DNA from: a virus
Lineage: Duplodnaviria > Heunggongvirae > Uroviricota > Caudoviricetes
IMG/VR virus record: IMGVR_UViG_2718217859_000002
Length of the DNA stretch: 26,681 bases
Direction: 5' to 3' (one strand)
Shown: piece after piece, positions 1,041-26,501 of the stretch
Layout: every line of letters starts with the position of its first letter
Numbering within the stretch: position 1 is the stretch's first letter
Translations under genes and position numbers: made by a program
The notes under the pieces: generated by a model
The model's database searches: none
What the model saw: the letters and a program-made list of their open reading frames with translations, nothing else
What the model was told of the DNA's origin: nothing

Positions 1041-1045
1041 AATCG

Positions 1046-1261: not shown

Positions 1262-1833
1262 TCTAAAGAAAACTCCTCTGCTAAATCATCCTGCACATCC
1301 TGACCATACCCGATGTAATACATAGTAGAGCGCGGGTCTGTCTGTCCCAGGAAATGGGCTATTGTCTCTATAGCTACCCCTGCATCAAACATCACACGGC
1401 CCCGACTTTTACGTGGCGTATGGCATCCCACATTAGAGAATCCGGCTCTACGTCCCATTTTCCCAAATTCAGTGAATACCGTGTTACGGGTTACGGCTTC
1501 GCCTTTACTGCGTAATGTGCCAGCACTGAAAATAAAATCTGTAGCTACAGGCATCTTCGTTTGCTCTGCCTTGCGTTGTGCCACCACTGACAACATGGCG
1601 GGGGTAACTTTTGGCCTTACTACGTTTCCGGTTTTCTCCTGCTTTATCTTCAAATGAGATTGCCCCTCAACATCCTGATATTTTAGCTTGAGTACGTCAG
1701 AGACACGCAACCCGCTTTCATACATAAACACCCATAAGCAATAAAACAGGTTGGTTTTACTATTGCGCTGTAGCTCTGCTGCTACTGTTTTTACCTCGTC
1801 TACATTCTTGAGGGCTTGGCTAATACCTTTCAT
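1255..1833 (-). CDS. small tyrosine recombinase (phage integrase fold, about 192 aa)
   Basis: C-terminal catalytic-like residues (GLRVSD, CHTPRKSRG, STMYYIGY). ATG at 1833 has an AAGGAG SD 9 nt upstream; the longer ORF to 1929 lacks one. Confidence 0.6.
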   Translation of the reverse strand: MKGISQALKNVDEVKTVAAELQRNSKTNLFYCLWVFMYESGLRVSDVLKLKYQDVEGQSHLKIKQEKTGNVVRPKVTPAMLSVVAQRKAEQTKMPVATDFIFSAGTLRSKGEAVTRNTVFTEFGKMGRRAGFSNVGCHTPRKSRGRVMFDAGVAIETIAHFLGQTDPRSTMYYIGYGQDVQDDLAEEFSLEW

Positions 1834-1930
1834 CTTTATACTCTCCTTATTCGTTTCAATGAAAGTAGTTTTGATCATAAAACGATCATTTTCAATATGT
1901 TGCACGATACGTTTTATGGTTGAGAGCACT

Positions 1931-2017
1931 AAATGATCAAAAATGATTAAAGGGCTATTAAAAGGTGATTAAGACTGATTAAAAGGTATTAAAGGCGATT
2001 AAAACCGATTTAATTTA
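1931..2017. repeat. iteron-like array, about 7 copies of [G/T]ATTAAA(A)GG at 10-11 bp spacing
   Basis: Direct reading: tgattaaaggg, tattaaaagg, tgattaagac, tgattaaaagg, tattaaagg, cgattaaaacc, gatttaattt. Confidence 0.6.
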
Positions 2018-2243
2018 GGTGCGTCCGTCACCATCGTTGAACACAAAGATCAAGCCTCCCGATCTGATGCAGGCACAAATATGAAATATCTTATTGATTT
2101 ATAAGTAAATTTATTTTATTTAAGCTGTTCACAAATGATTTGTCTTGTCAAGAAATTTATTTTCGGCAGATGAAAAATAGCCAATAAATAGCGATAAATG
2201 GTCTATATATGCCTGAGTATATAAAGATCAGTAGGTTACAGAA

Positions 2244-2262
2244 TACACTTTGCTAAAGTGTA
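2244..2262. promoter_or_regulatory. perfect 8-bp-arm palindrome TACACTTT-gct-AAAGTGTA (operator-like)
   Basis: Inverted repeat read directly. Confidence 0.4.
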
Positions 2263-2647
2263 TCGAATCTGGGTTGTATTGCATTATAAGTGATAATAAT
2301 TCTTATTATTGAATTGTATGACAAATGATTATTCTCTTTGAGATGTGCACGAGTGAACATTCGTTCAACAAATGATAGAACGTTTATTGAGCAACAATTT
2401 TGCAGTGATGCGCTATATGCCGCATTACATAAGGCTTTGCTGATGATAATGTAAAAGTGAAGAAAGTAAGAATTGCACTTTGAATCTACCTTTCATTGCA
2501 TTTTTTAGTAGGGAATTACACGGAATAAGCTATGAATATTCTATGATTTACACGAGATATTCTTGCTGTTTAATTTCGGCTTTGGAGATCAGGCATTCGC
2601 AAGAATACGCTAATGCGTTGCCTGAAAAGCCATTGCACATAATAGAG

Positions 2648-2971
2648 GTGAGCGTATAGCGAACTATCAATGTGATCATTGCACGAATGATAATGAGTGG
2701 ATATAGATTCTATATATCGTTAGATTGTAGTTTGATAGTTAATGTGTAATGTAGATTGTATGAGCGTATAGCGAATGTTAGTTAGATCAACAACAAACTA
2801 ACCTTTAAATCTCTTTTATCTTCTCATAGATATGGCTATGCGTAGCAACCGAAGGTTAGCCATTAATCTATGCAGCCGTAAGGCTGTTTTGCATGTAATA
2901 GTTGTTTGTTGTTGGTAGTCGTTAGACAGTTACCAATTTATAGATCAGAGATAGATGTGAGCGTATAGCGA
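2648..2971. repeat. three dispersed copies of GAGCGTATAGCGA (2648-2662, 2761-2774, 2957-2971)
   Basis: Exact 13-14 nt direct repeats in an ORF-free AT-rich region. Confidence 0.6.
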
Positions 2972-3065
2972 TACACTAATCATAACAATATCTTCTTACT
3001 TTTTAGTTAGTTAGTTGTTAGTAGGTTATTGTTATGCGCGCTATTAGCGCATGTATAAAGGTATC

Positions 3066-3296
3066 ATTTTTATCTAAAGGGCTTTAGACATTTTTGATAC
3101 CTTTTTCATCTCTAAAAAAGTGTAATTTTTATCTAAAGGGGCTTTAGACATTTTTTACACCTTTTTCTGTGCAAGACACTTACCAGTGTGCACAATACTT
3201 ATGCTTTTCTAAAGCCGGGAATTTTTAAGTTTGATTGATCAATTGTTAACTTTAAAAGTTACTTTTAACAATCACTTAGACGATCTAAAGCCGCAA
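3066..3296. promoter_or_regulatory. operator cluster: two 40-bp direct repeats each with palindrome TCTAAAG(G)GGCTTTAGA (3073-3088, 3132-3148) plus TCTAAAG half-sites near 3208 and 3286
   Basis: Read directly; lies upstream of the plus-strand operon starting at 3520. Confidence 0.55.
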
Positions 3297-3437
3297 TTAA
3301 CATAATATAAGTTGACATGCAAGCACTTTTTACCATATAGTGCGGCCCCCTATCTATAAATCACACATTTTACCACTTGTCAATACCATAAATAACCTTA
3401 TAAAACAGGTGCTTAGTTTAGTATTGATAAATATTTA

Positions 3438-3466
3438 TTGACTAATACTATAAGATGGTGTATATT
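3438..3466 (+). promoter_or_regulatory. sigma70-like promoter TTGACT-N17-TATATT
   Basis: Hexamers at 3438-3443 and 3461-3466, about 55 nt upstream of the 3520 start; AGGAGG SD at 3507-3512. Confidence 0.45.
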
Positions 3467-3519
3467 AGCATTAGGGAATTGCATTCCGTAGTAACCAACA
3501 ACAACCAGGAGGTAAATAA

Positions 3520-3750
3520 TTGCGATGGTTTGACACTGAGCAAGTCTACATTGCCCTGAAATGTGGGGAAGTGAAACGCCACACAATAGCCAGCAATATG
3601 GGGCAATGCGTTACCCGTGGAGACGAGAAGCGTGCAAAGATGTTTCGTGATGCTCTTACACGGTATGACAGAGAACGCGCGATCATTGATGCGCAGAATG
3701 TGCCAGGGCGTAAGAAACGTGCTGGACGTAAATCACAATTAATCAACTAA
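3520..3750 (+). CDS. hypothetical basic protein (76 aa), TTG start
   Basis: AGGAGG 7 nt upstream of TTG; basic C-terminus (RKKRAGRK). Confidence 0.45.
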   Translation: MRWFDTEQVYIALKCGEVKRHTIASNMGQCVTRGDEKRAKMFRDALTRYDRERAIIDAQNVPGRKKRAGRKSQLIN

Positions 3751-3770
3751 CAAATAAAGAAAGGTGCTTT

Positions 3771-3932
3771 ATGGATATTCGATTCAATCCAGAAGTATTT
3801 GCAGAATTACGCACGATGGCAACACAACGAGGTATTAGTATTCCCGCGTTAGTTAACGTCATACTTAAAGAAAAAATCATCCTACATCAAGAGGAAAAAT
3901 ATGATAAAGACGATCAAACGAAAAATAGTTAA
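3771..3932 (+). CDS. ribbon-helix-helix (Arc/CopG-like) DNA-binding protein (53 aa)
   Basis: Below ORF-track size cutoff; translated by hand: MDIRFNPEVFAELRTMATQRGISIPALVNVILKEKI... fits a strand-helix-turn-helix pattern. AAGGTG SD upstream. 3' end overlaps next gene in another frame. Confidence 0.4.
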   Translation: MDIRFNPEVFAELRTMATQRGISIPALVNVILKEKIILHQEEKYDKDDQTKNS

Positions 3933-5385
3933 TAGCATTAATCCCGTTTACCTTGTAGATTCAATTTGCGGCTCAGGAAAGAGTCACCGCCTTATAGAAT
4001 ATATACTCGGCCTTCAAGATTCATCTGAAGCTATCCCGCAACGTGTTCTAATAGCCGTTCCTACGCATGAATTAGCCACAGAGACGCGTAATAAGATGTT
4101 AGACGCGGGAATACATGGTTATCATGTTAAAGTCGATAGCGGGGCTGTTTTAGCCCTTAAACAAACACTATCAGAATCCTTTGATTATCCGGTCGTTATT
4201 ACCACGCATCAGGCACTACAGGTTTTTTGTGAGAGAGCAACCTTTGATAGTGAGATGCAAAAACTCCTGTATCCCTTTCAAGTTTTCATTGATGAGATTC
4301 CGGCAGCTTGGCACGGCGATCACGCTACAGTTTTACATAGTGACTCTGTAACGGATAACTTCCCGTTTATGCAGTGGATGGAAGAGAGAGACGGATTATT
4401 ATTCCTTAAGTCTGACAATGAGAACGACCTTTACAAGTATTACCATGAACGCCACGCCGGATCGGATAGCCTGAAAGCGGTTATCTATGCTGTGCTGAAC
4501 GGTAGCGGCTTGCTTTATGGGGAAACAGATAAAGGGTACAGCTTCTTTGCGCAGACAGCTAACCCTGTGATCAATTGTGCAATGTGGTCTGAACGTCTAA
4601 CCATTATGGGGGCGGGTGTTAGCCGATCTGAATGGCGTTATGTAGCTGAGAACGTGGCTAAGGTGGAATGTATGCCAGCTCCTGATCATCTACTACCGGA
4701 CAACGACCGCAGAGAACATAAGAACACGCCTGTTAAACTGGTATCTGTGCTAAAGCCAGGAGTAAGAGCGACGCTTACGCAATTACAGGAAGTTTTTAAC
4801 AACCATCTACAGACGATTGCCCTTACTATGGGAAGTCGGTTTATCTTTGCAACGAACAACGACAAAGGGATCTGTAACTTCAAGACTATTGCACTCGATA
4901 GCCTGGAGGATAACGGGAAAGGAAAAGCGGTAAGCATGGCAAGCTACGGGCTGAACGTATACCAGAGCTACCACGCCGCCGCTTTCCTGGGGTGTGCTAA
5001 CCTCAATGCTACAGATAACAACCGATGGGCGCAATGGCTTAATTTCTCCGGTTATGACGCTGAGGCGGTGTTACGCCTTAAGGTTGAAGCAATGACCTAT
5101 GAGCGTTGCTACCAGTTTATAAGCCGCACAAGCATTCGTGATAGTTCCTGCAAAGAGGCTTTAACGTTTATCGTGCCTGATACGCAGTGTGCTGAATATA
5201 TCAAGCGTTGGTATCTTCCACAGGCTGAGATCACAACGTTAGGCATCGAGAAGGAAAGGAAGAAAGAGAAGGGCGCTAATACAAAGGCAGCTATTCAGGA
5301 ACTGAAAGCTAAAGGCATGAAGCAAAAAGCTGTAGCAGAGGCGTTAGGCTTAGGGATTGCAACGGTTAAACGTAACTGGAAATGA
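3901..5385 (+). CDS. P-loop NTPase, helicase-like (replication-associated?) with C-terminal HTH (494 aa)
   Basis: Walker A CGSGKSH near N-terminus, PTHELA (helicase motif Ia-like), TTHQAL, Walker B VFIDEIP; C-terminal KAVAEALGLGIATVKRN HTH. GAGGA SD upstream. Function inferred from motifs only. Confidence 0.55.
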   Translation: MIKTIKRKIVNSINPVYLVDSICGSGKSHRLIEYILGLQDSSEAIPQRVLIAVPTHELATETRNKMLDAGIHGYHVKVDSGAVLALKQTLSESFDYPVVITTHQALQVFCERATFDSEMQKLLYPFQVFIDEIPAAWHGDHATVLHSDSVTDNFPFMQWMEERDGLLFLKSDNENDLYKYYHERHAGSDSLKAVIYAVLNGSGLLYGETDKGYSFFAQTANPVINCAMWSERLTIMGAGVSRSEWRYVAENVAKVECMPAPDHLLPDNDRREHKNTPVKLVSVLKPGVRATLTQLQEVFNNHLQTIALTMGSRFIFATNNDKGICNFKTIALDSLEDNGKGKAVSMASYGLNVYQSYHAAAFLGCANLNATDNNRWAQWLNFSGYDAEAVLRLKVEAMTYERCYQFISRTSIRDSSCKEALTFIVPDTQCAEYIKRWYLPQAEITTLGIEKERKKEKGANTKAAIQELKAKGMKQKAVAEALGLGIATVKRNWK

Positions 5386-5404
5386 TCTACAACGGTGCAC
5401 ACAG

Positions 5405-5429
5405 AAAGGGGCAAATCAGCCCCTTTTTT
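5405..5429 (+). terminator. rho-independent terminator after helicase-like gene
   Basis: AAAGGGGC-aaatca-GCCCCTTT followed by a T run. Confidence 0.6.
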
Positions 5430-5588
5430 ATTGCCTGTAGTAAATAGCACGAATTGCTAAAGAAAAACTATTGACTATCTATAAACTTTATGATACTCAT
5501 AAGTATTGAGGTGCATACAACCTCAAAAGTAACGTATATAGAGTATCCCTTTATACATATATCATACAACAACCACAAGGAAAAGCAA

Positions 5589-5774
5589 ATGAAATATTTT
5601 TCAGTTTTAGATGTGCTGATGGCACTGATTGAAGGTCGAGTAAGCCGAAACCGGATTCTACAGAACCGTAACGCAGCACGCCGCAGCGGTTATCACGATC
5701 GTGAGGCTCTATTCACCGAAGCCCTGCAAAAGTTCGACCAGATTCGCAAACGTGAGAAGGAAGGGCAGCTATGA
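5589..5774 (+). CDS. hypothetical small protein (61 aa)
   Basis: ATG with AAGGAA SD; the track ORF from 5490 has no SD. Confidence 0.4.
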   Translation: MKYFSVLDVLMALIEGRVSRNRILQNRNAARRSGYHDREALFTEALQKFDQIRKREKEGQL

Positions 5775-6028
5775 AACATCATTTAAGCATTGGTAAGCAC
5801 GAATACGAGATCACGGAAAGCGGATACACACTGGCAAAACAGATCGCTGATAGCAATTATGAGCTACCCGCAATTATCAGCTTTCAGGGGCTACCCCATA
5901 GCAAGGAACACACACAGCACTGGTTAAATCACTTAAGCCATTTCGGGGTGATTCAGTATGAAGCTGTGAATAGTCAGACGTTCCGTTTGCTTGAGATAAA
6001 CCCGTTTGAATTGTGGGTGACGCTGTGA
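5771..6028 (+). CDS. hypothetical protein (85 aa)
   Basis: ATGA overlap with upstream ORF. Confidence 0.45.
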   Translation: MKHHLSIGKHEYEITESGYTLAKQIADSNYELPAIISFQGLPHSKEHTQHWLNHLSHFGVIQYEAVNSQTFRLLEINPFELWVTL

Positions 6029-6231
6029 TCATATTCGATAGCGAATTTTCACAAGAAATCTTTCTGCAATATTTACGGGAAAGAACGGGAATGATTCTGT
6101 TTGATTCTGAGTTTTCCGGTGTGGTAGGTGAGCAATTTTTATATGCTCTTCTCGATAGCCTAAGTAAACAAGGCTTATTGCAATATACAAAAACTCATAT
6201 GAAAGCATTTAGAATCGACTCTGTAGCTTAA
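6013..6231 (+). CDS. hypothetical protein with internal tandem repeat (72 aa), GTG start
   Basis: Protein-level duplication IIFDSEFSQEIFLQYL / ILFDSEFSGVVGEQFLYAL. Confidence 0.35.
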   Translation: MGDAVIIFDSEFSQEIFLQYLRERTGMILFDSEFSGVVGEQFLYALLDSLSKQGLLQYTKTHMKAFRIDSVA

Positions 6232-6269
6232 AACAAACAACTATCAAACATCTTGAAGGGTGGAAAACA

Positions 6270-6371
6270 ATGGAAAGCTTAATATTTTTCTTAGTATTCA
6301 TGATCGCTTCCTTTTTTAACACTGCAAGAAGAAAACCAAAACGAAGGGGAAGCAATGAGCAAGCAAAAAGG
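6270..6371 (+). CDS. 33-aa hydrophobic peptide (single TM helix plus basic tail)
   Basis: Hand-translated: MESLIFFLVFMIASFFNTARRKPKRRGSNEQAKR; GGTGGA SD-like upstream. Below track cutoff. Confidence 0.25.
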
Positions 6372-6735
6372 TAAGAAAAACGTAATAACAACTATTGGCG
6401 AAGCATGTGATCAGTATGCGTTAAACAATCCTCGCAAATATAACTACGAGCATGATGCACAACCAGGCGAAGAATTGATCTTTATACTTGAAGAACCAAG
6501 CCCAGAATTAACAGACGAAGAATTATCACTCATTCAAAGTATGGACGGTGTTTATTTTAATCCACGTCCACGCAAAACAACGGTTATAGATTCCAGTCTT
6601 CTAAAAAGATGGCAGTGTTTGGGGTTTTCAGACATGGCCCATTTTAGGGGGTATATGTCAATGAATAGCCTTCAATATGCAGGCGTGCGAGAAACCGAAT
6701 TACTTCTGCTTGATAAAGTAAACATTGACGATTAA
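6355..6735 (+). CDS. hypothetical protein (126 aa)
   Basis: GAAGGGGAAG SD-like upstream of ATG. Confidence 0.5.
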   Translation: MSKQKGKKNVITTIGEACDQYALNNPRKYNYEHDAQPGEELIFILEEPSPELTDEELSLIQSMDGVYFNPRPRKTTVIDSSLLKRWQCLGFSDMAHFRGYMSMNSLQYAGVRETELLLLDKVNIDD

Positions 6736-6776
6736 CAGCGTTTGCTGAATATAAACCTTAACAAAAGGAAAATAAA

Positions 6777-6998
6777 ATGATTAACAAAGCAATTTTAGAG
6801 ACAACCACTTTTCACGATCTTAAACTTCTTTCTGAATGCTTCATAAGCCTGATTGAACGAGCACAGGAAGAAAACGATCTCGGTTTACTCGATGATATTA
6901 TAGACAACATTGCAACTTATAAAATCCCGCTCACCATTGCTATGAAGAAAGCACGCGAAGCACAACAACAATTAGAACAATTAGAGGAAGTGGCATAA
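6777..6998 (+). CDS. hypothetical protein (73 aa)
   Basis: ORF with AAGGAAAA upstream. Confidence 0.45.
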   Translation: MINKAILETTTFHDLKLLSECFISLIERAQEENDLGLLDDIIDNIATYKIPLTIAMKKAREAQQQLEQLEEVA

Positions 6999-7306
6999 TG
7001 AGCACTACACACAACGTAACTATTCAGATGATGGATCTGATTATTTCTTTACAGAAGGCAGTTAATTCGGCTCTGACGTTTCCAACTGAGCTAACCATTG
7101 CACAGGCTGTTATTAACCTGGAATCGACGCGGGAAGCACTTGAACTACTTATTGCAGCGTGCGAACAATCCGAAGGTGCACAGGTTGAAGCTGACGAATT
7201 GTCTAATCTGATCATCGTTATTCATGACACCACTGAAATCATGAAAGAAGCGGTAGCAGACCTGCAACCACTCATTAATGAACTAATCGACAAGGCTAAC
7301 AACTAA
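6998..7306 (+). CDS. hypothetical acidic protein (102 aa)
   Basis: ATAATG overlap coupling with upstream ORF. Confidence 0.45.
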   Translation: MSTTHNVTIQMMDLIISLQKAVNSALTFPTELTIAQAVINLESTREALELLIAACEQSEGAQVEADELSNLIIVIHDTTEIMKEAVADLQPLINELIDKANN

Positions 7307-7515
7307 TGACAAAAACTAAACGTGTGCGCCTTCTGGCGCTCACAGAAGAAGGGAAAGCGGGTAATTGTTTCACAGTAGGTAAAGTGTATACCGGCTTACT
7401 CGACACTTACACCCGCCTGATGCACGTAACCGATGATAACGGTAACGATCAAACAATCGTTTTAGATGGTAATTGCGTATTTGGTGAATGGGAACTGACA
7501 ACCGAAAAGAATTGA
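7306..7515 (+). CDS. hypothetical protein (69 aa)
   Basis: TAATG overlap coupling. Confidence 0.45.
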   Translation: MTKTKRVRLLALTEEGKAGNCFTVGKVYTGLLDTYTRLMHVTDDNGNDQTIVLDGNCVFGEWELTTEKN

Positions 7516-7534
7516 AAAAACTTTGATTTAACTA

Positions 7535-7563
7535 TTGACTTTATAACAGAAATGTTATATAAT
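7535..7563 (+). promoter_or_regulatory. near-consensus sigma70 promoter TTGACT-N17-TATAAT
   Basis: Hexamers at 7535-7540 and 7558-7563 with a 17-nt spacer. Confidence 0.5.
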
Positions 7564-7569
7564 AAGAAG

Positions 7570-7810
7570 TGTAGGGGAAAGAATCTAAAACAGGTGTTAG
7601 CTGGCGTTAATCCTTCTCCCGATTTTAATCCTACACGAAAGCGGGGTAGACCTCAAGGGGTCGCGCCCTATCTAACCTGCCTCGCTTTCCCTTTACCAGT
7701 TTTTTTAGAAATTGTTTCCCTCGTTAATAGTTTCATATATTTTCCTTATTGCTTTATCAAAATTGTGTCTTAAGAATGCAGGGGCTACGGATTTGGCCCC
7801 TCATCTTTTT
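7570..7810 (+). ncRNA. candidate small non-coding RNA (promoter to terminator, no convincing ORF or SD)
   Basis: Predicted start about 7570; GC stem pairing 7634-7645 with 7681-7691 followed by a T run near 7700; second terminator at 7781-7810. Confidence 0.3.
7781..7810 (+). terminator. rho-independent terminator
   Basis: GGGGC-loop-GCCCC followed by TCATCTTTTT. Confidence 0.55.
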
Positions 7811-7957
7811 AACCAACTGCGAAGCATGAAACACTTTCTAAAAACACTGTTTACAGTGTCTATAAACCCCGTATAAACAAATAACGGTGTATATTGTTTC
7901 TTGACAACAATTCTACTAAGCCAAAAGCTGAATATGTTTTTTGTTTGTTGGTGTTTA

Positions 7958-8146
7958 TTAAGGTGCCAATCTTAGAACGCTGAAAGCGTGGATGATCCCC
8001 GAAATCATCTCGGCACCGCCTCCTATTAAAATGAGAATCCAAAAGGTTTGAAAGTTAATAGTAGTTCCTAAAAGTCTGATCGATGCATCCACATTGTGAA
8101 AGACAGCGATTAGCCATCGCACGAATAACAGGTTTATAGATTCCAA
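7958..8146 (-). CDS. small hydrophobic protein (62 aa), TTG start
   Basis: Perfect AGGAGG SD 8 nt upstream of TTG (minus strand); hydrophobic sequence with GGG turn. Confidence 0.3.
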   Translation of the reverse strand: MESINLLFVRWLIAVFHNVDASIRLLGTTINFQTFWILILIGGGAEMISGIIHAFSVLRLAP

Positions 8147-8310
8147 AGGGGGCGACCTCCTAAGCGCCTACTCCCTGTAAGCCTGTTATTCAACCCCTCA
8201 AGGGTATATAACAATAAGCAATCTTATTCTTATATGTCCTCCTCTTTAAGTTCATATAACTGCGATTTAGTAACACTCTATAACATCCTTCAAATGTTGT
8301 ATTCATAAAG

Positions 8311-8340
8311 CCGGAAGCTTTCCCCTTCCGGTTTTATTTT
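8311..8340 (+). terminator. rho-independent terminator just upstream of structural operon
   Basis: CCGGAAG-ctttccc-CTTCCGG followed by TTTTATTTT. Confidence 0.6.
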
Positions 8341-8382
8341 GTCAGCACTAAACAAGAATGTTAGAAAAAAGGTAAAGCAACA

Positions 8383-8598
8383 ATGCAAAATCTCATTCTA
8401 AAGAATGGTAATGAAGAATTGATTATCACTAATGAAGCATTCAACGCTACGGCTTATATGTTGGGAATCACTCCCACAGAATTGAAAAAACATTGTGATA
8501 AGCTTTTTAAGTCTGCTGATGAACAGAAACCTACTATGCAGGATCTGATTAAAGCAAAAGCAGAACAAATCAAACAATCCAAAAAAGGAAACAATTAA
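8383..8598 (+). CDS. hypothetical small protein (71 aa)
   Basis: AAGGTAAAG SD upstream; first gene of structural cluster. Confidence 0.45.
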   Translation: MQNLILKNGNEELIITNEAFNATAYMLGITPTELKKHCDKLFKSADEQKPTMQDLIKAKAEQIKQSKKGNN

Positions 8599-8601
8599 TT
8601 T

Positions 8602-8973
8602 ATGGCTATTATTAATATGAGCGATCTGTTTCCAGTTCGCAAATCATTTACCGATATCGTTTCATATGCAACTGATGAGTTCGGTTGTGTGCAATCTTTT
8701 ACCGTTGATCTGGCGGTTGATGTTGAATGTGGCGATCTGATTACCAGTGACGGCGCTGAATATGTAAGCGGCGGCGATGTTCTTGTCGTTGTGTCTGATG
8801 CGGTATCCGCTGGCGACGCTAAAACCGTTAACGTGCTGCGTAGCAATGCCGGACTGGTTTGCATCAAATCCGATGCTCTGAATGTTGAAGGCGCTGTGAA
8901 AGAAGCCGCTATTGCTGCCCTGGCTGCAAAAGGTTTCCAGATGGCTGGCTTTAATACTGTATTCACATCTTAA
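8602..8973 (+). CDS. putative head decoration-like / minor virion protein (123 aa)
   Basis: Beta-rich V/D/A/G/S composition; sits immediately upstream of the capsid-like gene (decoration-then-capsid order as in lambda D-E). Homology not verified. Confidence 0.4.
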   Translation: MAIINMSDLFPVRKSFTDIVSYATDEFGCVQSFTVDLAVDVECGDLITSDGAEYVSGGDVLVVVSDAVSAGDAKTVNVLRSNAGLVCIKSDALNVEGAVKEAAIAALAAKGFQMAGFNTVFTS

Positions 8974-8991
8974 TATAAAGGAATAAAAATA

Positions 8992-10020
8992 ATGATTATT
9001 GGTAATGAATCCGTCGATCTGGCTCCGCTGTTTAGTCTGCACGACTCTCGCAACTTCCTGTTAACTTCTCTCGACTTTACTGATCCGGTAGGTGTGAGTT
9101 CTCATAAAGTGGCTGTTAGCCAACTGGTGGAAACTAACGAATCTCTGTTCAACAAAGAAACCTCTCGTTTCTCTTCTGAACATAACGTGACTAAACGTGA
9201 ACAGGGTAAAGAATTTTTAGTAGAGATCCCCTACTTCCTGCGTGAAGATATGATTAAGCCGCAAGACGTGCAAGGCAAACGTAAGCCAGGCGCTACCGTT
9301 GAAGAAACTCTGACAGATATCTACGCGGAATATGTTGCTAAGCACCACATTGCTTTCCAGCGTACTAAAGAGAGCGTGCTGGCTGCTTCCCTGTTTAGTG
9401 GTCGCACCTACACCCCTAAAACTGACGATGTGCTGATCCAGTGGGGCGATCTGTTCAGTGCTGTTCCGATGACTGCAACCATCGACGCATCAAGCACCAC
9501 ACCTTCTATGGTGTTCCAGCAATTCGATCAGATGCATACAGACGTTATCACTAAAGCACAAAGCCAGGCGGCTGCTGTAGAGCGTATCGTTGTATTCTGT
9601 AAACCTGCCGCTTTCAACGCTATCCGTTACAGTGCTGGCATGGTTAACGCGTTCCAGTATGCAAGCCCTACCGACGACGCAAACATCGTTTATAGCGTGC
9701 GCTCCCTGCTGCCAGGTGTGACTACCTTCACTATTCCAGGGACTAATATCGATATCGTCAAAGTTACCGATCCGCTGCTGCTGGCGCATATGACTTCTGA
9801 TGCGGTGGCTGTTCCGAAGTTCGCTAAAGGCTCTAACGTCTATCAGAACATTTTCGGCGCTCCGTCTTCAACGTTCGACCTGCTGAATTCTGGATCGGCT
9901 GAATATTACAGCTATGCATTTAGCCCAGCACGTAACGACGCTGTAAACGTAGTTACCGAGAATAGCCAGATGGTTGTAAACCACGGCGTAGGCTTCACTG
10001 TACAGATCACAGTAGCGTAA
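8992..10020 (+). CDS. putative major capsid protein (342 aa; lambda gpE-like size and architecture)
   Basis: Size, position and a 30-aa helix-prone segment (TLTDIYAEYVAKHHIAFQRTKESVLAASLF) compatible with an HK97-fold spine helix; strong SD. Inference, not search-based. Confidence 0.5.
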   Translation: MIIGNESVDLAPLFSLHDSRNFLLTSLDFTDPVGVSSHKVAVSQLVETNESLFNKETSRFSSEHNVTKREQGKEFLVEIPYFLREDMIKPQDVQGKRKPGATVEETLTDIYAEYVAKHHIAFQRTKESVLAASLFSGRTYTPKTDDVLIQWGDLFSAVPMTATIDASSTTPSMVFQQFDQMHTDVITKAQSQAAAVERIVVFCKPAAFNAIRYSAGMVNAFQYASPTDDANIVYSVRSLLPGVTTFTIPGTNIDIVKVTDPLLLAHMTSDAVAVPKFAKGSNVYQNIFGAPSSTFDLLNSGSAEYYSYAFSPARNDAVNVVTENSQMVVNHGVGFTVQITVA

Positions 10021-10070
10021 TAAAGCGTTAATAGTCGTTTCCTGTGCGACTGGAAATAAAACAGGCAATA

Positions 10071-10137
10071 AGGGCAAAAGGGATTAACTAACCTGTAAAG
10101 CAAATACAGTAACGGATCTCTTTGCCCTTTTTGTTTT
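10071..10137 (+). terminator. structured terminator after capsid-like gene
   Basis: 9-bp stem AGGGCAAAG/CTTTGCCCT enclosing a 39-nt loop with nested CTGTA/TACAG hairpin, then TTTTGTTTT. Confidence 0.45.
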
Positions 10138-10170
10138 CTACCGTTTATTAAATATTGTGAGAGAAAAACC

Positions 10171-10362
10171 ATGAACACACAAAACAACAATCCCGTTGAA
10201 ATCTTGAAAGCTGTTTCCACCTTACCGGAAGATATTCTGAATATCTCTCAAGTATGCAAGTTTTTAGGGATCTCTAATACCGCTGTACGTCAAAGAATCT
10301 TTGCTACTGGCTGTTCCGCTATGGAAGCAGTGCAATATTACGTAGCAAAACAAAATAAGTAA
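10171..10362 (+). CDS. small HTH DNA-binding protein (63 aa)
   Basis: ISQVCKFLGISNTAVRQRIF helix-turn-helix pattern. Confidence 0.45.
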   Translation: MNTQNNNPVEILKAVSTLPEDILNISQVCKFLGISNTAVRQRIFATGCSAMEAVQYYVAKQNK

Positions 10363-10380
10363 AAGATAAAGGAAAATATT

Positions 10381-12222
10381 ATGGATCTGAATATCTCAAC
10401 CTTAACAAACAAGGTTGTATTTAAGGTGGATTTTGCATCATTACAGAAAGCACGCGATGCAGGTAAGAAATTCCAGAAAGAAATGGAAAACCTAACCAAT
10501 CCAACATTGAAAGGGAAGAAGGCTAAACGAGCTATAGACGATGCTAACGATCTGGTAAAAGCCCGTAAAGCTACACAGGCTAAAGCTGATGCCAAAGCGT
10601 CAGACAAGCAAGCTCAAACCGATAAGAAGAACGCTGATAAGGTGGCAAAGGCAGAAGCTAAAGCGAAGGCTAAAGCCGCTATAGCTGCCGATAAACAGAT
10701 CCGCGCTAAAGCAACGATAGCAGAGAAGGCAGAGATTAAACGCCAGCAAGCTTTTAGACAGCTTGAAGGCATCAAGAAAGGGCGTATGGGTGACGGTATG
10801 GACTCCGCCCAATACTACAAAACATTACAATACATCAAACAACAAACGGCAGCTTACGAGAAAGGCGCTATTAGTCAGGCTAAGATGAATCACCTGATCC
10901 GTGATCGCATCACGTTAGAACGCCGTGCGGCTGCTGTTAAAGCTCGCCAGGTGGCGGCTGATGGCGGTAAATATCCACATATGGCTAAACAGCTTAAAGG
11001 TGGTCATATAGGCGGTGGTGTAGGTGCAATGGTGGGCGGTGCTGCTCTCACTGCTGCTACTCTCGGCGGTGCTGCGATATTCAATACCGTAACCGATCAG
11101 GCAAGCAAGATCACAGACACTAACCGCAAGGCAAAAGCTGTTAACGTCAACACTAACGCCCTGTTAGCACTCAACCAGTACGGCTTAGAGCACGGGGTAG
11201 ATAGTTCCGTTGATCAACGTCAAGATAACCTTAAAGACGTTCAAGAACGTTTAGGCGAGACGATAGGGAATACTAAGTGGGATGCTAAAAAGGGTCGCTG
11301 GGCGGGGGGTAACGGTGCCGTTGATAACATCCTTAACAAATATGGTTGGAGTCCTGAACAGGTTAAAGGTTTCCAAACTGATCCATTAGGTTTCCTGGGT
11401 GCTGTAGTGAAAGAAGGCGAACGCCGTGGACTCTCTGACCAGGAGCAGGGTCACATGCTCGAAGACCTTGGAAATGATTTACAATATTTCCGTGGGGCTT
11501 TCAGTCGTAACGGTGAAGAGTTAAATAAAACTCTCGTTAAGATGCAACAAGCCAACGCCACCTATACACAAGCGGATCTTGACGCTGCTGAACGTCTGCA
11601 AGCTGTACAGGCTAATATGAATATGGCCTGGGAAGGTAGTAAGAAAGCTATCATGACGGGATTCGGTGAAGAGTTCGACGCTCAAGCTGGTGAAGAGTGG
11701 GCGCAAATGTTGAAAGATCTCAATCCTCTGTTTAAAGAACTTGGAAGCTCAACGGCTGAAATGATGAGTGCCTTTGCTGGTGCTGTATCGTGGCTTACTG
11801 CTGCATACCAGAATATAAATCCAGAGAACAAACATGAAAACCTTGATTCGTCCGGTATGTATTATAAGGACTCGTTTGTAGGTGGTATGGTTGATTGGGG
11901 TCGTAGTGCTTTAGGCTTATCGCCTATCCCTGGCACGGAAGACAAGCCAACAACTGGCGGAACTGCAATTCAGAACTATGCAAGCCCGTCCGAGAACGTG
12001 CAATCCCTGAAACAGAACGTTAGCCGTGATCTGAACACTACCCCATCTATGACGTATGCGCCAAGCATTGTCGTAAACGTGCCAGAAAGTAAGGTTGATG
12101 TGAATATCGCCCCTGATGGCTCTCAGCTTGGATCATACCTCGACTACAAAGTGGGAAGTATCCAACAAGATTTTGAACGTAGTTTCACGTTGGCGGCTCT
12201 GTCTGGGCAAGCACCAAGTTAA
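10381..12222 (+). CDS. large coiled-coil protein with Gly-rich hydrophobic segment (613 aa), tape-measure/pilot-like
   Basis: K/A/E-rich N-terminal coiled coil; GGHIGGGVGAMVGGAALTAATLGGAAIF segment; AAGGAAAA SD. Confidence 0.55.
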   Translation: MDLNISTLTNKVVFKVDFASLQKARDAGKKFQKEMENLTNPTLKGKKAKRAIDDANDLVKARKATQAKADAKASDKQAQTDKKNADKVAKAEAKAKAKAAIAADKQIRAKATIAEKAEIKRQQAFRQLEGIKKGRMGDGMDSAQYYKTLQYIKQQTAAYEKGAISQAKMNHLIRDRITLERRAAAVKARQVAADGGKYPHMAKQLKGGHIGGGVGAMVGGAALTAATLGGAAIFNTVTDQASKITDTNRKAKAVNVNTNALLALNQYGLEHGVDSSVDQRQDNLKDVQERLGETIGNTKWDAKKGRWAGGNGAVDNILNKYGWSPEQVKGFQTDPLGFLGAVVKEGERRGLSDQEQGHMLEDLGNDLQYFRGAFSRNGEELNKTLVKMQQANATYTQADLDAAERLQAVQANMNMAWEGSKKAIMTGFGEEFDAQAGEEWAQMLKDLNPLFKELGSSTAEMMSAFAGAVSWLTAAYQNINPENKHENLDSSGMYYKDSFVGGMVDWGRSALGLSPIPGTEDKPTTGGTAIQNYASPSENVQSLKQNVSRDLNTTPSMTYAPSIVVNVPESKVDVNIAPDGSQLGSYLDYKVGSIQQDFERSFTLAALSGQAPS

Positions 12223-12280
12223 TGATAAAGAGAATGTTTAATCACAATCTAAAACACTCTTATAAGGAATTAAGCATATA

Positions 12281-12314
12281 AGAGGCTCCCATTACAAGGA
12301 AGCCTCTTTATTGC
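12281..12314. terminator. hairpin terminator between convergent genes
   Basis: AGAGGCTCC-attacaa-GGAAGCCTCT then TTTATTG. Confidence 0.5.
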
Positions 12315-12329
12315 GCCTATGGCGTTGTT

Positions 12330-13550
12330 TTAAGCCTTAAAATCAATATTTAATTCATATCTTACTAATTCTACATATTCAGCTAATTCTTGAATGCTTG
12401 CCCCTTGTGAGTAGGTGCGAAAGGCTTCTGTTTTAGCTATCTGCTCTGTATGTCCGGTAATGGCTCCGATCCGCTGTTCAGGCACTCCTGCACGATCAAG
12501 ACAAGTGATAAACATCCCGCGCAAGCTGTGAAAGCATTGTCTATTTGTAGCGATTGGCAAGACGCTACGACGTAAACGTGAGAATGCTTGAGAATAGAAC
12601 GGGCCTTTCTTACCGTCGATTCTTTTTACTTTGTTCGAGTGAGGGAACAAATATTCACCATAATTATGATTTAAATATTCATCGACAATAATCGATAGTC
12701 TCGAATGTATCGGAACGTGTCTGATCCCTGCTTTAGTCTTACTTTTGCTGATATAAAAACAGCGTATTCCTTCCACAGTTACAACCTCTGACTTTTTCAG
12801 AGTTGCCAGTTCGTCTAATCTGCATCCTGAAAACAAGCCCATTAAAATAATATTTCTGATCTCCGGCTCCGCTGCATCAAGTAGCTTTTGCATTTGTTCA
12901 GGTGTAAACGGTTGATAACTCTCGATTGTGCGACGTGCTTCGAGGTTATGACCGTGAAAAGGGTTACTGTCTGGTATTCCGTCATAACGGCGTTTAGCAA
13001 ATTCATAGAGCGATCCTAAGCATGTAAGCCAGTTTTGACGAGATTGATCGGCTGCTCCTCGTTGCTTCTGGTCATCTAAGAATACTGTTACAAGCCGTCT
13101 GCCTATTTTCTCAATATGAATATCATCTTTCTGAATGCTTTGTAAAAATAGCTCAACGGCCCTTGCTGATTTCTGTAGTGTTGAGTATGAACGACGCTCT
13201 CTGTAGCATTCGGCGTATTCGTCACGTATTAGGCACAGGGAAGGCGGTGCATAACCGCGTTTTACAGCTCTTTGCGTGTTTTTATTGGCACTTGCCTCTG
13301 AATGTAAGGATTCAATAGCTTTTTGTAACCTCCTTTCGGGGTTATCAGGATTATGTTTCCGCTTTAGTTCCTCCCATTCTAATAACAGATGGTTTCTGAA
13401 TCTTCTCGCCTCATTCAGATCTCGTGTAGATGTGCTTTTTCTCCACAACTTGTAAGGGTAAAGATGGCGTAAGTATTTAGGAACAAAAATCTGAAACATC
13501 CAGATCCCATCTTTTCTCTTAAATAAGTATGCTTGGCTCTTGATCGACAC
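12330..13550 (-). CDS. int: tyrosine integrase of element 1 (406 aa), GTG start
   Basis: C-terminal HSLRGMFITCLDRAGV...GHT...Y catalytic-like motifs; N-terminal YLFKRKDGIWMF arm-binding-like hairpin; GAGGA SD. Confidence 0.85.
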   Translation of the reverse strand: MSIKSQAYLFKRKDGIWMFQIFVPKYLRHLYPYKLWRKSTSTRDLNEARRFRNHLLLEWEELKRKHNPDNPERRLQKAIESLHSEASANKNTQRAVKRGYAPPSLCLIRDEYAECYRERRSYSTLQKSARAVELFLQSIQKDDIHIEKIGRRLVTVFLDDQKQRGAADQSRQNWLTCLGSLYEFAKRRYDGIPDSNPFHGHNLEARRTIESYQPFTPEQMQKLLDAAEPEIRNIILMGLFSGCRLDELATLKKSEVVTVEGIRCFYISKSKTKAGIRHVPIHSRLSIIVDEYLNHNYGEYLFPHSNKVKRIDGKKGPFYSQAFSRLRRSVLPIATNRQCFHSLRGMFITCLDRAGVPEQRIGAITGHTEQIAKTEAFRTYSQGASIQELAEYVELVRYELNIDFKA

Positions 13551-13635
13551 GATAATGATCCTCTATTATCACGTAATCAGTTACCTATGATTGATCACAA
13601 AATCTTTATTTTACAGCAGGTTATTGTGGGTTTCC

Positions 13636-13657
13636 TCGATTCCCTTCGCCCGCTCCA
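13636..13657 (+). other. att core: 22-nt fragment matching the 3' end of tRNA-Gly(CCC) (TCGATTCCCTTCGCCCGCTCCA)
   Basis: Ends in CCA; acceptor 3' strand CGCCCGC pairs with the GCGGGCG 5' end of tRNA-Gly; matches my recollection of E. coli glyU. No 5' tRNA body present. Confidence 0.6.
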
Positions 13658-13821
13658 AACAAACATTTCTCAACGTCTACTAAAGTCCATCAAACCCACG
13701 AATATCAAGCCTTCCAGGCATTTTCATAGTTTATTAACGTCTACTCACAACTACCAGAATCTACACACAGAAGTGTATAGTAATGCGTATAGGACAAAAT
13801 TTATTTTTTGGAGCTATACAC

Positions 13822-15036
13822 ATGCTGCTTTCAGACCTTGCCATCAGGCGCGCGAAGCCGAAAGAAAAGGCTTATACACTCAATGACGGTAACGGGCTTT
13901 CGTTGCTCATTGAGCCGAACGGTTCGAAAGGGTGGCGACTGCGCTACAGGTTTGCAGGAAAGCCCAAAATGTTGTCGTTGGGTGTGTACCCTGATGTGTC
14001 TCTGTCTGATGCCAGGGCGGCAAGGGATGAGGCTAAAAGGCTTCTTGCTGGTGGTATAAATCCAAGTGAGGCCAGAAAAGCCCAAAAGCGAGAACAGGCG
14101 AGCAAATTTGGCAATACTTTTGAGGGTATTGCTCGCGAATGGTACGAAAAGCGGATCGACAGGTGGTCATCGTCATACGCCGAGGAAATGATCGAGACGT
14201 TTGAAAAAGATGTTTTTCCGTACATTGGCGGTAGGCCGATCGCAGAAATTAAGCCGATGGAATTGCTGGCGGTTCTTTCCCGTCTTAATGACCGTGGTGC
14301 GACTGAAAAATTGCGTAAGGTTCGCCAGCGATGCGGCGAGGTGTTCCGGTACGCAATCATCACCGGACGCGCCGAATATAATCCAGCCCCTGACCTGGTG
14401 AGCGCATTTGCTCCACATAAAAAAGAGCATTACGCCTATTTGAAGGCCGACGAACTGCCGGAATTTTTCCGCGTTTTTAATACGTACACCGGAAGCCAGA
14501 TCGTCAAACTGGCAATGCGGCTATTAATTCTGACAGGTGTCAGACCCGGGGAATTACGGCAGGCAGAATGGCAGGAGATCGATTTTGATAATCGTTTGTG
14601 GGAAGTGCCTAAAGAACGAATGAAGATGCGCCGTCCGCATTGTGTGCCATTACCAGAACAGGCGATAAAAATACTGGAGCAGTTAAAAAACATGACAGGC
14701 CAGTATCAGTTTATTTTCCCCGGTCGTATTCACCACAGTAAGCCAATGAGTGAAATGGCGATGAATGTGCTCATTCGTCGTATCGGCTATGCCGGGCGCG
14801 TTACTGGTCATGGATTCCGGCACACCATGAGCACCATTTTGCATGAGCAGGGCTATAACACCGCGTGGATAGAGACGCAGCTCGCACACGTCGATAAAAA
14901 CTCAATTCGTGGCACATACAACCATGCGCAATATCTGGATGGTCGCCGGGAGATGCTCCAGTGGTATGCCGACTATATGGATTCGCTCGAGCATGGCGGA
15001 AATGTGGTGCATGGTGAGTTCGGAAAATGCGGGTGA
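13822..15036 (+). CDS. int: P4-type tyrosine integrase of element 2 (405 aa)
   Basis: N-terminal LSDLAIRRAKPKEKAYTLNDGNGLSLLIEPNGSKGWRLRYRF arm-binding domain typical of P4/CP4-57-type integrases; C-terminal HGFRHT...Y; GGAG SD. Track ORF begins earlier at 13783 without SD. Confidence 0.9.
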   Translation: MLLSDLAIRRAKPKEKAYTLNDGNGLSLLIEPNGSKGWRLRYRFAGKPKMLSLGVYPDVSLSDARAARDEAKRLLAGGINPSEARKAQKREQASKFGNTFEGIAREWYEKRIDRWSSSYAEEMIETFEKDVFPYIGGRPIAEIKPMELLAVLSRLNDRGATEKLRKVRQRCGEVFRYAIITGRAEYNPAPDLVSAFAPHKKEHYAYLKADELPEFFRVFNTYTGSQIVKLAMRLLILTGVRPGELRQAEWQEIDFDNRLWEVPKERMKMRRPHCVPLPEQAIKILEQLKNMTGQYQFIFPGRIHHSKPMSEMAMNVLIRRIGYAGRVTGHGFRHTMSTILHEQGYNTAWIETQLAHVDKNSIRGTYNHAQYLDGRREMLQWYADYMDSLEHGGNVVHGEFGKCG

Positions 15037-15134
15037 CTGGTTGAGTATACAGTAGTAGACTTTGAGCACCTAAAAAGGCTGATGCAAACAGAGCTGGATC
15101 GGCCTTAACATTAGACCGCTTGAAGGGGGAGAAT

Positions 15135-15848
15135 ATGCCAATTGTGGAAAACATTCCTGACTTATCCCACTGGCGAACAGTACAGGAGTTTTCTATCACC
15201 CAGGCCGCTTTATTGTTGGCCGGAATTGATCCTTATGATTACCCTACTCTTGAACATGTCAGAGATAATAAACATGAACGTTGGAAAATGGCATGGGGGT
15301 TGGCTAATGGAATGGTAACAGCCATCCGTCGTGGTGTCTTAACTCCTGTTGAATGTACCTCTGAAATAGTTGAGTACGATAATTGGGGAAATGTTTGTGA
15401 TATTGAGTACAAACGTCTGACATCAGCGCAACTGACCGATCGTGCATATGAGATAAGCAAGGATAAAACTTTAATTAGTCGCCATTCTTTATATGAGTGG
15501 ATAAAAAATGAGAGCGTTGATTTTGCGAGATGCCCTCGCCCTATACCTGTTAAGGAAGTTAATCCGCCAGCAATCATTGAATCATCTCATCAGGTAATTA
15601 ATCCTGACGAGTATTTGTGTACTTATGGGCATAAGAGTGATGGGTTGGAGTATGTGCAGGATGCTATAAGGGAACTATGGTCGACGTATGACCCAGATGA
15701 CCCACAGACGGCTCCGACAGAGCATGAGGTACTTGAATATTTGAAAAAAAGGGGGGCGGGTTCTAATGTTGCTAGGGCTGTGAATCTGATTTTAAGGCCT
15801 GAACATCTGAAGCGTATTGGTAGAAGACCAAAAAAAACAAAAAGTTAA
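15135..15848 (+). CDS. hypothetical cargo protein (238 aa) in integrase-proximal variable region
   Basis: AT-richer than flanking genes; GGGGGAG SD; no recognisable motifs. Confidence 0.55.
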   Translation: MPIVENIPDLSHWRTVQEFSITQAALLLAGIDPYDYPTLEHVRDNKHERWKMAWGLANGMVTAIRRGVLTPVECTSEIVEYDNWGNVCDIEYKRLTSAQLTDRAYEISKDKTLISRHSLYEWIKNESVDFARCPRPIPVKEVNPPAIIESSHQVINPDEYLCTYGHKSDGLEYVQDAIRELWSTYDPDDPQTAPTEHEVLEYLKKRGAGSNVARAVNLILRPEHLKRIGRRPKKTKS

Positions 15849-16107
15849 ATAGTGGTCGCTATTCCAGAAAAATGGTGGTTTCCTTTCAAAAAAAAGTAAC
15901 CACCAATGCAGATTAAATCGTAAGAACAGTAATTTTTCTTCGTGTTTCACGTCAGCATGATACTTAAAATAGTAAACGCCATTATTAAAAAAAGGTGGAG
16001 CTATTTCACTGAAATGGTATTCGCCATTCATAATGGTAAGCATCTATAAATATCACTTTTCTTAATGCAAGCTATGTACACCTTTATAGACGTTACAAGG
16101 TGAATAT

Positions 16108-16305
16108 ATGGCAAACTCTCTTATTCGTTTAACGGAAGTTCAGCGTAGAACTGGATATAGCAAGGCATGGATTTATCGCCTTATGGGGCAAGGTAAATTT
16201 CCTGCATCAGTTAAAATTGGCTCGCGAGCTATTGCTTTCGTTGAGAGTGAAATTGACGAGTGGATTAATCAGCGTATTGCGGAATCACGCGGAACAGCTA
16301 CCTGA
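16108..16305 (+). CDS. alpA: AlpA-family phage regulatory protein (65 aa)
   Basis: LTEVQRRTGYSKAWIYRLMGQGKFP...ESEIDEWI matches the AlpA HTH signature; AAGGTG SD. Confidence 0.85.
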   Translation: MANSLIRLTEVQRRTGYSKAWIYRLMGQGKFPASVKIGSRAIAFVESEIDEWINQRIAESRGTAT

Positions 16306-16382
16306 TTAAATGGCTACGGGGCTATTGCCCCCAGCTATCCACCAGCAAATAAAAGTAACTTAATTCGATAGCAGGAGTTTTT

Positions 16383-17231
16383 ATGAAATTTCCAAAAACG
16401 CCCGTACAGGGGCAGGGCTTCGTTCGGCCTGAAAACCAGAATCTGCAAAATTTCGGCGATATTATCCCGGTTATTTCCGGTGTTATTGGCGGGCGTGAAA
16501 CCAATATTGTTAGCGCCAGAGCGTTGCATAAGGCGCTGGGTGTGAAGCGTGATTTCACAACCTGGATTAAAGGACGCATTGATGAGTACGGATTTAAAAA
16601 TGGCGTGGATTTTGAAGTTGTAGAAAATTTGTACTTTGATTCCCCGAAACGGGGGAACCAAAGTGTAAATATTGAACAGTTTGATTCTGATTGGACAACA
16701 AAGCGCGGCGGTGATCGTCGCAGTGAAGAGTATTTGATCTCCACGAACATGGCGAAAGAACTGGCGATGGTCGAACGCACCGAACAGGGCCGCGCCGTTC
16801 GTCAGTACTTCATCAAATGCGAGGAGGAGCTACACAAGGTAGCGCCAGTGCGTTCCGCAGCGTTACGCAGGGAACTGAAAGCCCGTATCACCGTTGCCAG
16901 CTACTTTAAGCCGATGTGCGCCGCGCTGGAGGCGTACCGGGCTGAACTGGGTAAAAACACACTCCAGCACCACTACACCACGGAAGCCAATATGCTGGCG
17001 CGTATCGTGCTGGGTGGCATGACTGCAAAACAGTGGGCGCAGGCGAACGGCATCACAGGCGAACCACGCGACCACATGAGCACGTTGCAGCTTGAGCACC
17101 TTTCTTACCTTGAGCAGAGCAATATCACGCTGATTGAGTTAGGCCAGGACTACCACCAGCGGAAGGCTGAATTAATTCGTCTTTCGCAGCGTTGGTTAGC
17201 CCGTCGCATGGAGGAAAACAGCCATGTGTAA
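16383..17231 (+). CDS. phage antirepressor-like protein (282 aa)
   Basis: Motif-level resemblance to AntA/KilA-C type antirepressors; AGGAG SD. Confidence 0.5.
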   Translation: MKFPKTPVQGQGFVRPENQNLQNFGDIIPVISGVIGGRETNIVSARALHKALGVKRDFTTWIKGRIDEYGFKNGVDFEVVENLYFDSPKRGNQSVNIEQFDSDWTTKRGGDRRSEEYLISTNMAKELAMVERTEQGRAVRQYFIKCEEELHKVAPVRSAALRRELKARITVASYFKPMCAALEAYRAELGKNTLQHHYTTEANMLARIVLGGMTAKQWAQANGITGEPRDHMSTLQLEHLSYLEQSNITLIELGQDYHQRKAELIRLSQRWLARRMEENSHV

Positions 17232-17618
17232 CGCTCTGACCGTTACAAAAAGAGAAAGCGCCCCGTTGCCGGAGCGCCTTTGTGAACGAATTACCTACAG
17301 CACCGCGATGTTTGCTATGTGGGTGAATTTTAGCGACAAGTTCGTTCAATGTGAAGGCACTGATCACCGTTACTACAGCACGCCAGAAATGCAGAATATT
17401 TTGCTGCAAAATGCCGTTGGCCACGCTGTCCGGAAAGCAAAAAATTTTGCTGGTGGCGCGACTGATGCGATTTTGTCAGGTCGCCAGGTGCTGATCAATC
17501 TGATGTCTGATTTCGTTCTGGATAAAACAAAGGCGACCGCAGAGAGCCGCCAGTGGAAAAGCTACATACTTGAACGCATCACCAACAATGCCACATTTGC
17601 GGCTGGTGGGCAATGTGA

Positions 17619-26490: not shown

Positions 26491-26501
26491 AGGTGTAAAT
26501 C

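Follow-up and report, generated by a model that had tools for sequence, protein, structure and literature searches.

How does the 3′ end of a tRNA gene come to lie, with no tRNA before it, in the gap between two integrase genes? The question is raised by the DNA analyzed here, a stretch of 26,681 nucleotides from a Caudoviricetes virus record (IMGVR_UViG_2718217859_000002), referred to below as the window. At its middle, two tyrosine-recombinase genes are transcribed divergently from a 271-nt spacer, which contains a 22-nt sequence, TCGATTCCCTTCGCCCGCTCCA (13636-13657, + strand), of which the window has no second copy even at a tolerance of 3 mismatches. The left gene, int1 (12330-13550, - strand, 406 aa), starts 85 nt away from the 22-mer and the right gene, int2 (13822-15036, + strand, 404 aa), starts 164 nt after it; the coordinates of both genes agree with RefSeq annotation in other genomes. 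An earlier note, made from the letters alone, had placed the fragment at about these distances and had read it as a junction shared by two elements at one tRNA hotspot, element 1 on the left having been inserted between an intact tRNA gene, expected upstream of the window, and element 2 on the right.

The 22-mer is identical, over 22/22 positions, to the last 22 nt of glyU, the gene of tRNA-Gly(CCC), in E. coli K-12 MG1655 (b2864) and in three other genomes including OkiPb01676, which bears out the suspicion of the earlier note that a sequence with a T-loop, an acceptor 3′ strand and CCA derived from this gene. None of 100 shuffles contained a match to it, and 0 are expected by chance. On the cloverleaf of the 74-nt glyU gene, the 22-mer begins with the last 6 of the 7 T-loop nucleotides, takes in the 3′ strands of the T-stem and of the acceptor stem, and ends with the discriminator base and CCA. 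Integration at T-loop and 3′-end sublocations of tRNA genes is known, and integrases of this kind usually use a core that reaches from the T-loop to CCA (bioRxiv 10.1101/2020.11.02.365908). No tRNA body precedes the fragment: ARAGORN detected no tRNA in the whole window, Rfam gave no match at the gathering threshold in the whole window and none at E<=10 in 13500-13850, and the 5′ edge of the 22-mer is the exact end of tRNA identity, the window reading ggtttcc where the tRNA reads cgagggt. Because identity ends so precisely at this edge, the fragment is, on its sequence, a tRNA 3′ end that was displaced rather than the remains of a decayed gene. Neither a search of the window tolerating 3 mismatches nor one with a shorter query of 15 nt gave another core copy, and a scan of 13400-13900 for promoters and terminators gave nothing above chance.

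The outer copies of the core lie outside the window, and the full array was taken from a near-identical genome with 4-5 differences in 26.7 kb. This is the draft assembly GCA_012068455.1 (contig AARNYV010000001.1), which matches the window over its full length at 99.97-99.99% identity and in which the junction is embedded in a 323-kb NCBI contig. The tandem junction was located through exact-protein look-ups in draft assemblies, and the look-up reported 5 further similar places. In GCA_012068455.1, the order of genes and elements is ygeV, xdhCBA, actS, intact glyU, element 1, the 22-mer and element 2, continuing rightward with a degenerate third core, the native flank, a GH15 gene and ETT2. 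The intact tRNA-Gly(CCC) gene is found 601 nt upstream of the first base of the window (locus L039, 5426-5499), on the side where it had been expected. Copies of the 22-mer lie at 5478-5499 of this locus, inside the tRNA, and at 19735-19756, at the seam. The third core, TTCCCTTCGCC-GCTCCA, carries a 1-nt deletion and lies 897 nt past the end of the window (locus L021, 11907-11923), with native glyU-downstream sequence next to it. It follows from the order of these parts in the contig that all three predicted core copies are present, the last one being degenerate. In this genome, element 1 measures 14,235 nt and element 2 measures 13,920 nt.

Each of the two elements is also found alone at glyU. 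Element 1, of about 14.2 kb, is represented by window positions 1-13635, which lack its first 601 nt. In EC21GDE043 it stands alone, 14,261 bp long and bounded by perfect 22-nt repeats, after which the native glyU downstream sequence follows; here the first base of the window falls 602 nt within the element. Perfect 22-nt direct repeats flank it in O26 FWSEC0001 and GCA_012068455.1 as well. Its right, int1-proximal arm (13551-13635) adjoins the 22-mer in every copy of element 1 examined. Element 2, of about 13.9 kb, occupies 13658-26681, the window lacking its last ~896 nt including sieB, and it stands alone beside an intact glyU in OkiPb01676 and TUM9812. In fact, window positions 13636-26681 are 99.96% identical to the island that directly follows the intact glyU of OkiPb01676, and the left, int2-proximal arm of element 2 (13658-13821) comes directly after an intact tRNA-Gly in OkiPb01676, TUM9812 and ETEC4079. 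As for empty sites, glyU of K-12 runs directly into native downstream sequence. Identity to a tRNA 3′ end, an intact proximal tRNA, a core at every boundary, an integrase in each element, and both solo and empty sites were all found, and the idea of two elements sharing a junction at one hotspot stands. The 22-mer is the seam of a tandem array, a hybrid attachment junction that serves element 1 as right-end core (attR) and element 2 as left-end core, and the arrangement is real, ordinary and well understood; tandem arrays of integrative elements at tRNA genes, formed by successive integrations at the restored core, are already described (Islander/TIGER; Mageeney et al. 2020, PMC7192596).

Comparison of the junctions adds a refinement to this shared-junction reading, namely that the two cores are nested, with 22 nt for element 1 and 18 nt (TTCCCTTCGCCCGCTCCA, 13640-13657, + strand) for element 2. 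The 18-mer is perfect at the far-end, internal junction of the element 2-like island of ETEC4079. In the lineage of the window, the far-end core of element 2 is this 18-mer with one C deleted, TTCCCTTCGCC-GCTCCA, in 8/8 loci, among them L005 (~18478-18494) and L007 (32759-32775). The deleted core could mark an old, fixed and probably excision-impaired insertion, or it could be an imperfect copy carried in the element's own attP, with the crossover taking place 3′ of the deletion.

The glyU locus is a known island site (PMC2808357, PMC4313913, bioRxiv 10.1101/860726), and its occupants were counted in 5,426 complete E. coli genomes. The left arm of element 1 lies against an intact glyU in 258 (about 5%) of these, and its right arm with the 22-mer lies against the native flank in 149. 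In a further arrangement, seen in 26 genomes of O26:H11 type, element 1 and the 22-mer are followed by a third element with a 535-aa integrase and a 17-nt terminal copy of the core. The reverse order is present in at least one complete genome, ETEC4079, which reads glyU, element 2-like, 18-mer, element 1-like, 22-mer. The exact junction of the window was found in 0 of the 5,426 complete genomes, and likewise in none of the GTDB species representatives (searched with two patterns) and none of the JGI metagenomes; the tandem junction is therefore rare. At least 5 different right-hand contexts were seen for the exact Int1 protein, a sign that element 1 moved recently.

Some right-hand neighbors of element 1 are worth describing separately. 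In GCA_900604165.1 (L015, 7864-9915), the 22-mer is followed by an element with a 646-aa integrase of the DUF6538 type, and the arm of this partner (gaatttccctaacg) resembles the left arm of element 1. In SRR25724113 (L017), the 22-mer is followed by an unrelated flank with a Trans_reg_C gene. With such varied right-hand partners, the glyU core hosts at least 4 different neighbors of element 1. In one complete E. coli genome, VTB97420v, the int1 arm and only the first 12 nt of the 22-mer adjoin pdeF, which suggests a rearrangement or a deletion ending inside the core.

We hold with high confidence that the 22-mer joins, as a hybrid junction, two integrase-bearing elements stacked in tandem at the 3′ end of glyU, of which element 2 most likely came first and element 1 second. 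Each element would integrate by a tyrosine-recombinase crossover within the block of tRNA 3′-end identity (22 nt, or the nested 18 nt). Integration would rebuild the tRNA from the copy brought by the element, and the original 3′ end would be shifted to the far side of that element. The starting chromosome would have carried glyU, element 2, the degenerate core, the native flank and ETT2. In the next step, insertion of element 1 at the intact glyU, mediated by Int1, would have left the displaced 22 nt between the int1-proximal arm and the int2-proximal arm, and it is because of this position between the two arms that the integrase genes diverge from the fragment.

The structure alone cannot give the order of arrival, since both insertion routes yield an identical product, and the order has to be read from comparison with other genomes, which settles it reasonably well. 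Compared with OkiPb01676, which has element 2 only, the flanks of the tandem genome show 1 mismatch in 5,425 nt upstream and 0 in 8.6 kb downstream (IS2 apart), whereas comparison with the genomes that have element 1 only gives 32-181 mismatches upstream and about 2-3% differences downstream. Because the flanks match those of the strain with element 2 only, we infer that element 1 was most likely the later arrival and entered at the intact tRNA; its placing by the earlier note, between the tRNA and element 2, thus agrees with the comparison. The opposite history, in which element 1 was resident and element 2 later entered the displaced 22-nt copy at its right end, is in our opinion unlikely. 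It would give the very array observed, a first integration restores the core at both ends so that the second element may use either (PMC7192596), and, as ETEC4079 demonstrates, either order of the two families is possible. However, the displaced copy offers no tRNA body 5′ of its 22 nt, the 5′ strand of the T-stem included, and the flanks together with element 2 are essentially identical to those of a strain with element 2 alone, unlike those of the genomes with element 1 alone. Moreover, the deleted far-end core and its flank haplotype are common to all 8 element 2 loci (8/8), and the deletion is seen in at least 2 genomes with element 2 alone (OkiPb01676 and TUM9812), which points to one old insertion, and the signs of recent mobility belong to element 1. 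OkiPb01676 could in principle have been derived from the tandem array by precise loss of element 1, which is the same reaction reversed.

Two other explanations do without a boundary between elements at the 22-mer. A single composite element with two integrases, the 22-mer being an internal relic, would account for int1 and int2 being adjacent and divergent, and the array could in principle move as a whole by recombination between its outermost cores. Nonetheless, the 22-mer is exactly where matches to complete genomes end, either half can be found by itself at glyU flanked by its own direct repeats, the left half is joined elsewhere to other right-hand partners, and the outer right core has its 1-nt deletion; we regard this explanation as very improbable and, with the halves occurring separately at glyU and the matches breaking at the 22-mer, it was rejected. 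That the fragment is no attachment site at all, being a decayed tRNA pseudogene, a chance resemblance or a chimera of assembly, could be argued from the missing tRNA body and from the absence of the junction from all 5,426 complete E. coli genomes. Against this stand the perfect 22/22 match with 0 expected by chance, the edges of identity, which fall to the very base where two independently documented elements end, and the same junction in the 323-kb NCBI contig, besides the 5 further places reported by the look-up. This last explanation is scarcely credible, and pseudogene and chimera were both rejected.

The preferred history, with element 2 resident and element 1 inserted later, has consequences for the mobility of both. 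Element 1 should still be excisable, since neither of its own arms is lost and its 22-nt cores are perfect. Its predicted circle junction would read ...GGTTTCC-22-mer-GAATCTCCCC..., and the repaired chromosome would read glyU-AACAAACATT. The excision of element 2 is probably impaired, because element 1 DNA has taken the place of the tRNA body 5′ of the 22 nt at its left junction, and because of the 1-nt deletion in its right core; the predicted circle junction of this element would be ...GTTGTATCG-core-AACAAAC.... Perhaps the insertion of element 1, by removing the tRNA body from the left junction of element 2, could lock element 2 in place.

Element 2 is led by int2, a P4-type tyrosine integrase with its Pfam domains matched over nearly the full profile length. 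The protein has the arm-DNA-binding N-terminal domain (PF13356, Arm-DNA-bind_3, E 1.9e-26), the central domain (PF22022, Phage_int_M, E 8.6e-33) and the catalytic domain (PF00589, Phage_integrase, E 2.8e-28) of P4-type integrases. Further genes of the element encode AlpA (16108-16305), Ant (16383-17231), a primase-helicase of the D5/P4-alpha type (19278-21050) and a small-terminase-like HTH protein (25672-26196), besides Icd-like, ProQ/FinO, PerC and DUF2213/protease-like proteins. Judged by its predicted genes, this content matches that of a P4-like or PICI-like satellite. No PHROG or Pfam match to Sid, Psu or Delta was obtained among the ORFs scanned, several of which have no annotation.

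Between int2 and alpA, an ORF at 15135-15848 encodes 237 aa with no family match, and in TUM9812 and ETEC4079 the same slot is taken by unrelated genes of 255-265 aa. This position may serve element 2 as a slot for variable cargo.

The left arm of element 2 contains direct repeats of AACGTCTACT at 13672-13681 and 13736-13745, and a second pair, GTGTATAG / GCGTATAG, at 13773-13780 / 13785-13792; a similar tandem GTGTATAG motif is found in the far-end arm. These repeats are candidate arm-type sites of the P4-type integrase, to which it is predicted to bind. Candidates of this kind, taken as k-mers common to the arms together with GYGTATAG and the AACGTCTACT repeats, are only marginally above chance. 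In element 1, an 11-mer, CAGTTACCTAT (13578-13588), is common to the right and left arms and is likewise a candidate arm-type integrase site, marginally above chance and offered as a lead only; such sharing is weak evidence, because a shared 9-mer arose in about 39% of shuffles.

Element 1 is of a different make. Its integrase gene int1 matches Pfam PF00589 and PF20172, combining a DUF6538 N-terminus with a catalytic domain, and its translation shows the R, HxxR and Y motifs of catalysis; compared with the O26 copy, int1 has a dN/dS of 0.16. A helicase gene is found at 3901-5385, a gene for a capsid-like protein of 342 aa at 8992-10020 (PF03864, E 7e-11) and a gene for a tape-measure-like protein of 613 aa at 10381-12222. 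At the opposite, tRNA-proximal end, positions 1-621 hold a RAZR/PD-T7-4 defence gene, matched over its full length by PADLOC PDLC04109 (E 6.3e-90) and also by PF13643. RAZR/PD-T7-4 is an abortive-infection RNase for which the residues R146/H154 were described (PMC13017515). In the translated homologue, C17/C20/C46/C49, which would form the Cys4 zinc ribbon, and R143...H151 are intact, the latter with the same spacing as R146/H154. The Cys4 ribbon, the DUF4145/HEPN domain and the Arg and His residues being all present, the gene is predicted to have the RAZR function.

RAZR is carried as cargo at the tRNA-proximal end, and this end varies between copies of element 1; the O26 copies have YecR and a serine recombinase in place of RAZR, and other copies hold other genes. 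Because its contents differ from copy to copy, the end looks like a cargo or defence hotspot. Near the left end there is also a gene for a short tyrosine recombinase (1255-1929, - strand; 192-224 aa) with the catalytic domain only, and the serine recombinase of the O26 copies occupies the same position. Inversion, resolution or a mere remnant are possibilities for this short recombinase. It is followed by a non-coding stretch of about 1.9 kb (roughly 1930-3520) with several families of short direct repeats; at 2094-3167 these include TGAGCGTATAGCGAA in three copies and units of 28-32 nt about 60 nt apart. The repeats look like iterons or operator arrays, possibly a region of replication origin or control upstream of the helicase gene.

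The combination of RAZR with capsid and tape-measure homologues in element 1 is a more interesting observation than the seam itself. The capsid-like and the 613-aa proteins share about 25-30% identity with the major head and tape-measure proteins of virulent myoviruses of the phi92/phAPEC8 type. In the PDB, the capsid-like protein matches phi92 gp124 and the tape-measure-like protein matches gp134 (E 1e-48), and a Pakpunavirus capsid protein was also matched by the former. Between copies of the element, the two genes have a dN/dS of about 0.06, which indicates strong purifying selection. In a search of 20 ORFs against PHROGs, 10 of these also against Pfam, no portal, protease or terminase was detected in element 1, and BLAST against the structural region of Phapecoctavirus matched only the capsid and tape-measure genes. 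An ORF of 123 aa upstream of the capsid gene holds the position of a phage decoration gene, but has no detectable similarity. The variant in ETEC4079 (L008, 28023-33343) has in addition a baseplate gene, 53% identical to the Phapecoctavirus gene that comes just after the tape measure.

It is possible, though doubtful, that element 1 represents an undescribed family whose members are phage satellites, or defence islands derived from phages, with virulent phi92/phAPEC8-type (Stephanstirmvirinae) myoviruses as their target. Its structural homologues follow the gene order of the phage, and its tRNA-proximal end would hold a swappable defence cargo, here RAZR. More generally, the element may live as a satellite on these lytic phages, may be a defence island using structural decoys, or may be something else. 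Searches for literature on satellites linked to phi92 or Phapecoctavirus gave nothing relevant, and we found no paper describing such an element. If the satellite reading is true, the glyU array would hold two different phage parasites side by side, and if the satellite is one of lytic coliphages, this would bear on phage therapy and on the biology of satellites.

Apart from its gene content, the array is chiefly of value for annotation, since it fixes to the base the limits of two mobile elements whose genes appear in RefSeq as rows of hypothetical proteins. It is also a clean example of how flank haplotypes allow the order of arrival in a tandem array to be inferred. In addition, it presents glyU, best known for ETT2, as an active stacking site. 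The pairing and order seen in the window are rare and, as far as we could find, undescribed, no paper on this pairing in this order having been found in the literature; the mechanism is textbook.

Compared with known systems, the array shares with the other glyU islands (ETT2, GI-glyU) the same hotspot and the same succession of actS, glyU, island or islands, a glucoamylase-like GH15 gene and ETT2. Unlike these, the elements of the window are compact, carry integrases and lie between glyU and ETT2, whereas ETT2 is a fixed, decaying island without an intact recombination module here. Element 2 resembles P4 and the PICIs of Gram-negative bacteria in its P4-type integrase beside a tRNA gene, its core from the T-loop to CCA, its AlpA, Icd-like gene and primase-helicase of the D5/P4-alpha type, and a small module for morphogenesis or redirection of packaging with a TerS-like HTH protein; P4 differs in its target, which is leuX and not glyU. 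Element 1 is like the cf-PICIs in being an integrative island of ~14 kb with its own major-capsid-like protein. Of the capsid, protease, portal, connector and small terminase genes that define cf-PICIs, however, it shows a capsid-like gene only, with no portal, protease, head-tail connector or terminase gene detected in the 20 ORFs scanned. It also differs in having a tape-measure homologue (and, in the variant, a baseplate gene) related to those of Stephanstirmvirinae myoviruses, and in the position of its integrase at the tRNA-distal end. As a whole, although this pairing and order is absent from the 5,426 complete E. coli genomes, the array does not differ in principle from the tandem arrays described at tRNA genes (PMC7192596), with which it shares a tRNA 3′-end core restored at each boundary, one integrase per unit, successive integrations, and units that are found alone in other genomes.
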